Virus record (IMG/VR): IMGVR_UViG_2695420564_000008
DNA: 4,595 bases
DNA from: a virus
Lineage: Duplodnaviria > Heunggongvirae > Uroviricota > Caudoviricetes
Direction: 5' to 3' (one strand)
The notes under the pieces: model-generated
Databases searched by the model: none
What the model was told of the DNA's origin: nothing
What the model saw: only the letters and a program-made list of their open reading frames with translations
Position numbers and translations under genes: made by a program
In this document: one piece after another, positions 4,144 to 4,464 of the stretch
Position numbering within the stretch: position 1 is the first letter of the stretch
Layout: each line of letters begins with the position of its first letter

Positions 4144-4240
4144 TCACGCTCACATTACGCGACCAATACTAACAAAACATTAACACTATCTGGCAAAATT
4201 TTGTTCTAAACTTGATCTCAGCGAAATGGCTGCGCCTGAA

Positions 4241-4269
4241 TTGTGATAAAAATCACATTTTTATCACAA
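4241..4269. promoter_or_regulatory. Perfect 12-bp inverted repeat TTGTGATAAAAA-TCACA-TTTTTATCACAA with an embedded CRP-like site TGTGA-N6-TCACA (4242-4257)
   Basis: Directly readable: left arm 4241-4252, spacer TCACA 4253-4257, right arm 4258-4269. The nested TGTGATAAAAATCACA fits the CRP half-site consensus with a 6-bp spacer. It lies about 200 bp upstream of the gapA start. Confidence 0.5.
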
Positions 4270-4285
4270 CTGCCCTTTAAAATTC

Positions 4286-4298
4286 GGGGCGCCGCCCC
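4286..4298. other. GC-rich palindrome GGGGCG-C-CGCCCC (short hairpin or protein-binding site)
   Basis: Near-perfect 13-bp palindrome. On the minus strand it is followed by GAATTTTAAA, giving a weak terminator-like appearance; no T-run follows on the plus strand. Function unclear. Confidence 0.25.
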
Positions 4299-4393
4299 CA
4301 TGTGGTCTCAAGCCCAAAGGAAGAGTGAGGCGAGTCAGTCGCATAATGCTTAGGCACAGGATTGATTTGTCGCAATGATTGACACGATTCCGC

Positions 4394-4421
4394 TTGACGC
4401 TGCGTAAGGTTTTTGTAATTT
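4394..4421 (+). promoter_or_regulatory. Probable gapA proximal promoter: -35 TTGACG (4394-4399), 16-bp spacer, extended -10 TGTAATTT (4414-4421)
   Basis: Hexamers and spacing read directly; a second TTGACA lies at 4379-4384. Consistent with my recollection that gapA has a strong extended -10 promoter, but not verified against the published start site. Confidence 0.55.
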
Positions 4422-4464
4422 TACAGGCAACCTTTTATTCACTAACAAATAGCTGGTGGAATAT

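Follow-up and report, generated by a model that had tools for sequence, protein, structure and literature searches.

A complete gapA promoter region beside a satellite fragment in an Escherichia albertii draft contig that is probably chimeric

In the type strain of Escherichia albertii and in E. coli K-12, gapA has a normal divergent neighbour, msrB (yeaA), which lies 341 bp upstream. The DNA considered here ("the window") is the whole of a 4,595-bp draft contig, CCBU01000303.1, from an Escherichia albertii assembly. Unlike the K-12 locus, this contig reaches gapA without msrB and without the 9 bp that adjoin it, and foreign DNA stands in their place. A first-pass annotation of the sequence had proposed that an "island" ends inside the region upstream of gapA or at its border, and that it may have replaced or remodelled regulatory DNA of this essential glycolytic gene. 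The locus raises three questions: how much of the gapA control region is left, what the foreign DNA is, and whether the two are neighbours in the chromosome of the organism.

The gapA control region and its upstream edge

The 5' end of gapA occupies positions 4465 to 4595 on the + strand. Its ATG is at 4465, the reading frame is open to the end of the window, and the 43 codons present before the contig stops at 4595 are identical to K-12. The gapA Shine-Dalgarno sequence, GGTGGA at 4455-4460, is likewise identical to that of E. coli K-12. The sequence strings and start sites of the gapA promoters P1 to P4 (starts at -36, -153, -174 and -245, respectively) are available for K-12 (PMC2759082); the equivalent start sites in the window are 4429 (P1), 4312 (P2), 4291 (P3) and 4220 (P4). 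All 39 bases of P1 (4391-4429, + strand) agree with K-12 and with E. albertii. The promoter contains a -35 sequence, TTGACG, at 4394-4399, a TG at 4414-4415, and a -10 sequence, AATTTT, at 4417-4422, followed by the start site at 4429 (-36). P1 has been described as a -35/TGn promoter with a TGn/-12 AATTTT -7 sequence and a TG at -15/-14 (PMC2613000). Thus, the gapA start, Shine-Dalgarno sequence and extended -10 promoter are intact, as the first-pass annotation had read them.

The three upstream promoters are present as well, all on the + strand. The P2 equivalent (4274-4312) has one mismatch to K-12 and none to E. albertii, the P3 equivalent (4253-4291) has three and none, and the P4 equivalent (4182-4220) has four to K-12 and one to the E. 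albertii type strain. A CRP-type palindrome, TGTGATAAAAATCACA (4242-4257), has its centre 41.5 bp before position 4291, the equivalent of the P3 start. This is a perfect TGTGA-N6-TCACA, and a weaker version, CGTGATGAAAATCACA, is found at the same place in K-12. The palindrome is native to E. albertii, being identical in the type strain. P3 is reported to be regulated by Crp (PMC2759082), and the putative CRP site at 4242-4257 may act on P3 here.

The msrB(yeaA)-gapA region of K-12 has the same arrangement: the spacer is 341 bp, P1 and the gapA 5' end are identical, and P2 to P4 are each as far from the ATG as in the window. The differences are 22 substitutions, every one of which lies upstream of -121 from the gapA ATG (position 4343 in the window); the E. 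albertii type strain shares all but 2 of these. Judged by its sequence, then, the native gapA control region of E. albertii is ordinary, conserved and complete in the window.

Where this native DNA begins was determined by aligning three sequences: the contig, the island of E. coli 042 and the locus of the E. albertii type strain. The contig matches the 042 island up to 4134 and the native E. albertii spacer from 4133 onwards; the join at 4133/4134 is therefore marked by a TC (2 bp) that both sequences share, and it lies 9 bp from the would-be msrB start codon. At this point the island reads ...GAAGGAGTTC and then GCGGAGG, the native spacer reads CAT-TTGCTCACA and then TCTCTCTTTAG, and the contig reads ...GAAGGAGT-TC-TCTCTTTAG. 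Consequently, the foreign DNA does stop at the border of the region upstream of gapA, as had been suspected. The stretch singled out by the first-pass annotation starts at 4144, and the true breakpoint is ~10 bp further left.

The native msrB-gapA intergenic DNA that follows the join (4135-4464, + strand) amounts to 332 of the 341 bp of the spacer when the shared TC is counted. From 4133 to 4595, the contig is 99.6% identical to E. albertii NBRC 107761 (1184-1646 of the locus compared), with 2 mismatches, and 95.2% identical to K-12. Lost from the spacer side are msrB, its ribosome-binding region and the 9 bp beside its ATG, and nothing else. A tblastn search with E. albertii MsrB found no MsrB-like coding sequence on either strand of the window, the only matches being chance ones (E >= 0.09). 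The first-pass annotation had noted the missing gene and had given an MsrB N-terminus, MANKPSAEEL, which is correct for E. albertii and K-12; the alignment to the msrB-gapA reference that it proposed begins to show identity at 4133, with neither the full native spacer nor msrB present.

The most distal promoter string, that of P4, begins at 4182, within native DNA and 48 bp to the right of the breakpoint, and all four promoters, P1 to P4, lie at least 48 bp within native DNA. A strong constitutive "gapA promoter" cassette begins, according to its primer sequence, at the equivalent of ~4163 (PMC4358894), and this start also falls within the retained spacer. Since P1 to P4 all lie inside the retained 332 of 341 bp, and this DNA is 99.6% native, the suggestion that gapA regulatory DNA has been replaced or remodelled is unsupported.

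A mosaic of five unlinked pieces

The contig consists of five pieces, from ssb, opp, a yghZ-upstream region, a satellite element and gapA, which are mutually unlinked in every reference examined. The largest of the foreign pieces (1630-4134, + strand) is an internal fragment of a satellite (P4/PICI-like) that integrates at yicC, and it is 99.96% identical to positions 12001-14505 of E. coli 042. As seen in 042 and three other E. coli contigs, the native element runs in the order yicC, integrase, a hypothetical gene, an AlpA-type helix-turn-helix (HTH) gene, a 143-aa unknown, AntA/AntB, DUF4222, an Ash-family gene, several small ORFs and a TOPRIM/DUF927 primase. The segment that matches the window is its early regulatory part, which in 042 sits between the integrase and the ash/primase genes. 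In the window, this part comprises a 5'-truncated hypothetical gene (1650-2387) without its first 88 bp, the AlpA-type HTH gene (2500-2703), the 143-aa unknown (2703-3134), the AntA/AntB antirepressor gene (3147-3980) and the DUF4222 gene (3973-4143), whose 3' end is cut so that its last 21 bp are absent; the gene families were assigned from Pfam and PHROG matches.

In contrast to the 042 satellite, only an internal 2.5 kb is present, and it is not at yicC. The list of open reading frames (ORFs) in the window holds no integrase, the gene that lies just left of this part in 042 and in the three E. coli contigs; the window likewise has neither ash nor the TOPRIM/DUF927 primase gene, and the genes at both ends of the fragment are truncated. 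No direct repeat flanks 1630-4134, and no att site is found there. Instead of yicC, its native site, the fragment has an 85-bp piece of a third locus on its left and the gapA spacer on its right. It thus lacks the features that define an integrated island or satellite prophage at this place. The term "island" is misleading for an internal satellite fragment with gene-truncated ends and neither integrase nor att.

Several properties of the yicC element and of the ORFs in this fragment can be added here. The element is built of modules, and E. coli variants of it part from one another near 11917 and ~14513 in 042 coordinates. The first gene after its integrase (281 aa in 042; 11913-12758) has no Pfam/PHROG match. 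The part with this first gene is found in only ~38 of 5,426 complete E. coli genomes, and the AntA-DUF4222 part is found in several hundred. A collapsed repeat between natural module boundaries was considered as the source of the fragment and was half supported: the end at 14505 is near ~14513, but 12001 is not near 11917. The 56-aa DUF4222 ORF at 3973-4143 is an artefact of the join, given that the gapA spacer supplies its final two codons and its stop. Also present is the ORF on the minus strand (3925-4107) that had been pointed out earlier, and it is antisense to this DUF4222 ORF.

The remaining pieces lie to the left of the satellite. Positions 1-85 (+ strand) are a fragment of a mobile-element ssb gene that encodes the Q-rich C-terminal linker and ends just before the acidic tip. 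In 177 E. coli genomes, a gene annotated as ssb matches this piece with 100% identity, and it is not the oppA sequence of E. albertii-like genomes. Positions 84-1548 (+ strand) contain the 3' end of oppA (to 349), the whole of oppB (435-1355) and ~60 initial codons of oppC (1370-1548), all of E. albertii type; this DNA is 99.0-99.6% identical to ten genomes whose OppB is the same and whose oppABCDF operon is intact, and its identity to E. coli is 89.8%. The third piece, 85 bp at 1545-1629, comes from an unrelated intergenic region near exbD. It is 100% identical to metagenome contig OLIF01000047.1, where it lies upstream of a yghZ-like aldo-keto reductase gene and has different sequences on both flanks, and none of the 5,426 E. 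coli genomes has it.

Both short foreign pieces, 1-85 and 1545-1629, are exactly 85 bp long, an equal and odd length that suggests an assembler unit, either a read length or a k-mer length. The 71-aa ORF at 1370-1585 is another artefact of a join, in which the OppC N-terminus runs into the 85-bp piece; a look-up found no record of this OppC' fusion ORF. Gene callers would be expected to annotate both this ORF and the 56-aa DUF4222 one.

The pieces fall into two classes by identity: ssb (100%) and the satellite (99.96%) are close to E. coli, and opp (89.8%) and the gapA upstream region (~95%) are more distant from it. The overlaps at the four joins are 2, 4, 0 and 2 bp. These features would fit a join that existed in the sequenced DNA and not in the chromosome, either as a molecule made chimeric before or during library preparation (by ligation or by template switching in amplification, for example) or through a mixture of E. 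coli and E. albertii at low effective coverage. The ssb and satellite pieces would then be the ~100% E. coli-like component, and opp, the yghZ-upstream piece and gapA would come from E. albertii; the short overlaps and the read-sized smallest pieces agree with such an origin. However, the identity classes say little, because a mobile element is often almost the same in different Escherichia species, and random chimeras would be expected to have random orientation and not to recur between data sets. A chimeric molecule or mixed sample is consequently an improbable source of the join.

The joins in this contig and in a sister contig

The deposited contig has an N at positions 1540, 1543, 1544 and 1631, which are read as A in the window. 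The first three fall on precisely those three positions at which native oppC and the yghZ-upstream sequence differ within a 10-nt overlap (1539-1548), and the N at 1631 falls on the mismatch within a 3-nt overlap (1630-1632). Because the N's sit on the mismatches of an overlap, software must have merged two unlinked native sequences at the oppC join.

A second contig, CDRK01000047.1 (15,131 bp), has no SNP differences from the window over the ~4.4 kb of the opp, satellite and gapA parts. At the ssb/oppA point and at the oppC/85-bp point, however, CDRK01000047.1 is native, and these two joins are therefore not properties of the clone. Beyond the end of the window, it runs on into a full-length gapA and then yeaD-mipA-yeaG-yeaH'. 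CDRK01000047.1 is itself a chain of at least 9 unlinked pieces, with at least 7 further non-native joins, in the order malY-add', a parE piece, a truncated gene for an aromatic-acid MFS transporter, oppA'BC', the satellite, gapA-yeaD-mipA-yeaG-yeaH', rsmB, the tail of smpB, and more. The parE piece (1843-2068 of CDRK01000047.1) is a 226-bp internal fragment of an essential gene, the rsmB fragment (~13880-14061) is ~180 bp, and the add, MFS, oppA, oppC and yeaH genes are all truncated. A real chromosome with essential-gene fragments scattered in this manner is not credible. Four of its joins carry N's, at 2994, 5129-5146, 14062 and 15090-15095. The N pattern at 5129-5146 was compared with three candidate sources; it fits a mixture of them, although not cleanly, and is no proof of reads from the native flank of the island.

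The two contigs share the signatures of chimeric short-read contigs: unlinked loci are joined, there is read-sized filler, N's lie on the mismatches of end overlaps, and sister assemblies disagree. The satellite/gapA join differs from that pattern in that it is reproducible and free of N's. The join at 4133/4134 has no N in the contig and is base-for-base the same in CCBU01000303.1 and CDRK01000047.1, although the two data sets may share an origin. Both contigs have the order opp, 85-bp tail, satellite, gapA, and the ends of the satellite piece are nearly the same in both (12001 or 12003, and 14505, in 042 coordinates).

The pieces also differ from those of typical chimeras in being co-oriented with the reference chromosome. 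All that can be oriented (malY-add, parE, opp, the 85-bp piece, the satellite, gapA-yeaH, rsmB and smpB) keep the direction of the standard E. coli chromosome but not its order; in random chimeras, about half of the pieces would be inverted. The orientations themselves rest partly on matches to genomes and partly on the K-12 map.

How widely the join occurs was assessed in several collections. Among NCBI contigs, CCBU01000303.1 and CDRK01000047.1 are the only two recorded with the 56-aa ORF that the join creates, and the indexed independent Logan assemblies do not contain it. The satellite/gapA adjacency is found in none of 5,426 complete E. coli genomes, nor in the ten genomes with an identical OppB, nor in the E. 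albertii type strain. The 29-nt join had no exact match when one genome per species was scanned, scans of viral contigs gave no match to the join between the 85-bp piece and the satellite or to the 85-bp piece itself, and a literature search with the accession prefixes of the two contigs returned nothing. A 245-aa satellite ORF was also tried as a marker of the join and was uninformative, since gene callers also call it in intact islands.

Given these data, the window is likely to be a mis-joined, chimeric draft contig in which the satellite/gapA join is another false join, and we infer that it belongs to the same class as the others. An ordinary E. albertii spacer and gapA would have been joined, by assembly, scaffolding or gap closing, to a 2.5-kb satellite piece, which in turn would have been joined to read-sized and kb-sized pieces from other loci. 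Our confidence is not higher because the join is N-free and identical in both assemblies, because of the 2-bp microhomology, and because the pieces are co-oriented.

The alternative is a real join in an E. albertii clone. Illegitimate (microhomology) recombination would have placed the satellite fragment 9 bp upstream of the msrB start codon, with msrB displaced or deleted or with a second copy of the gapA region present, and the other odd joins would be separate assembly errors. The N-free join occurs in two assemblies whose other joins differ, and the 2-bp microhomology (the TC common to satellite and spacer) is of the type that illegitimate recombination leaves, although by our own estimate at least 2 bp would be shared by chance in ~16% of cases, which makes it weak evidence. 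In addition, the satellite genes and gapA are co-oriented, with no terminator-like site predicted on the + strand from 3900 to 4464, and the break is within 8 bp of a natural boundary of a satellite module (~14513 in 042). On the other hand, the recombination would require a 2.5-kb internal fragment whose left end is non-native and abuts 85 bp from a third locus; there are proven false joins in the same contigs; and the adjacency is found in no other genome or independent assembly. A genuine recombination junction is thus rather doubtful. One large deletion, whether from opp to gapA or from yicC to gapA, was rejected as its source, since on the K-12 map either would take many essential genes with it.

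Consequences for msrB and gapA

A true fusion of the satellite regulatory module (AlpA, the AntA antirepressor and DUF4222) 9 bp from the msrB start, unlikely as we consider it, would cut msrB off from the divergent promoter region. The promoters of gapA itself would all remain, and read-through from the co-oriented, phage-responsive AlpA-AntA-DUF4222 genes into the essential glycolytic gapA would be conceivable. Even so, this would be a modest, strain-specific rearrangement, and expression of msrB would be affected far more than that of gapA.

Misassembly leads to a simpler picture. The gapA region is known and conserved, the satellite fragment is from a known element, and their odd adjacency is most probably an artefact. 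Because the contig is a patchwork with the signatures of false joins, the absence of msrB is probably not biological: the gene would be missing only since the native sequence to the left of 4133 was not carried into the contig. The real locus would have the usual msrB-gapA arrangement, and gapA would be expected to be transcribed from its normal P1 to P4 promoters. CCBU01000303.1 and CDRK01000047.1 are unfit as evidence for a loss of msrB, for a linkage of opp with gapA, or for an island inserted at gapA in E. albertii.
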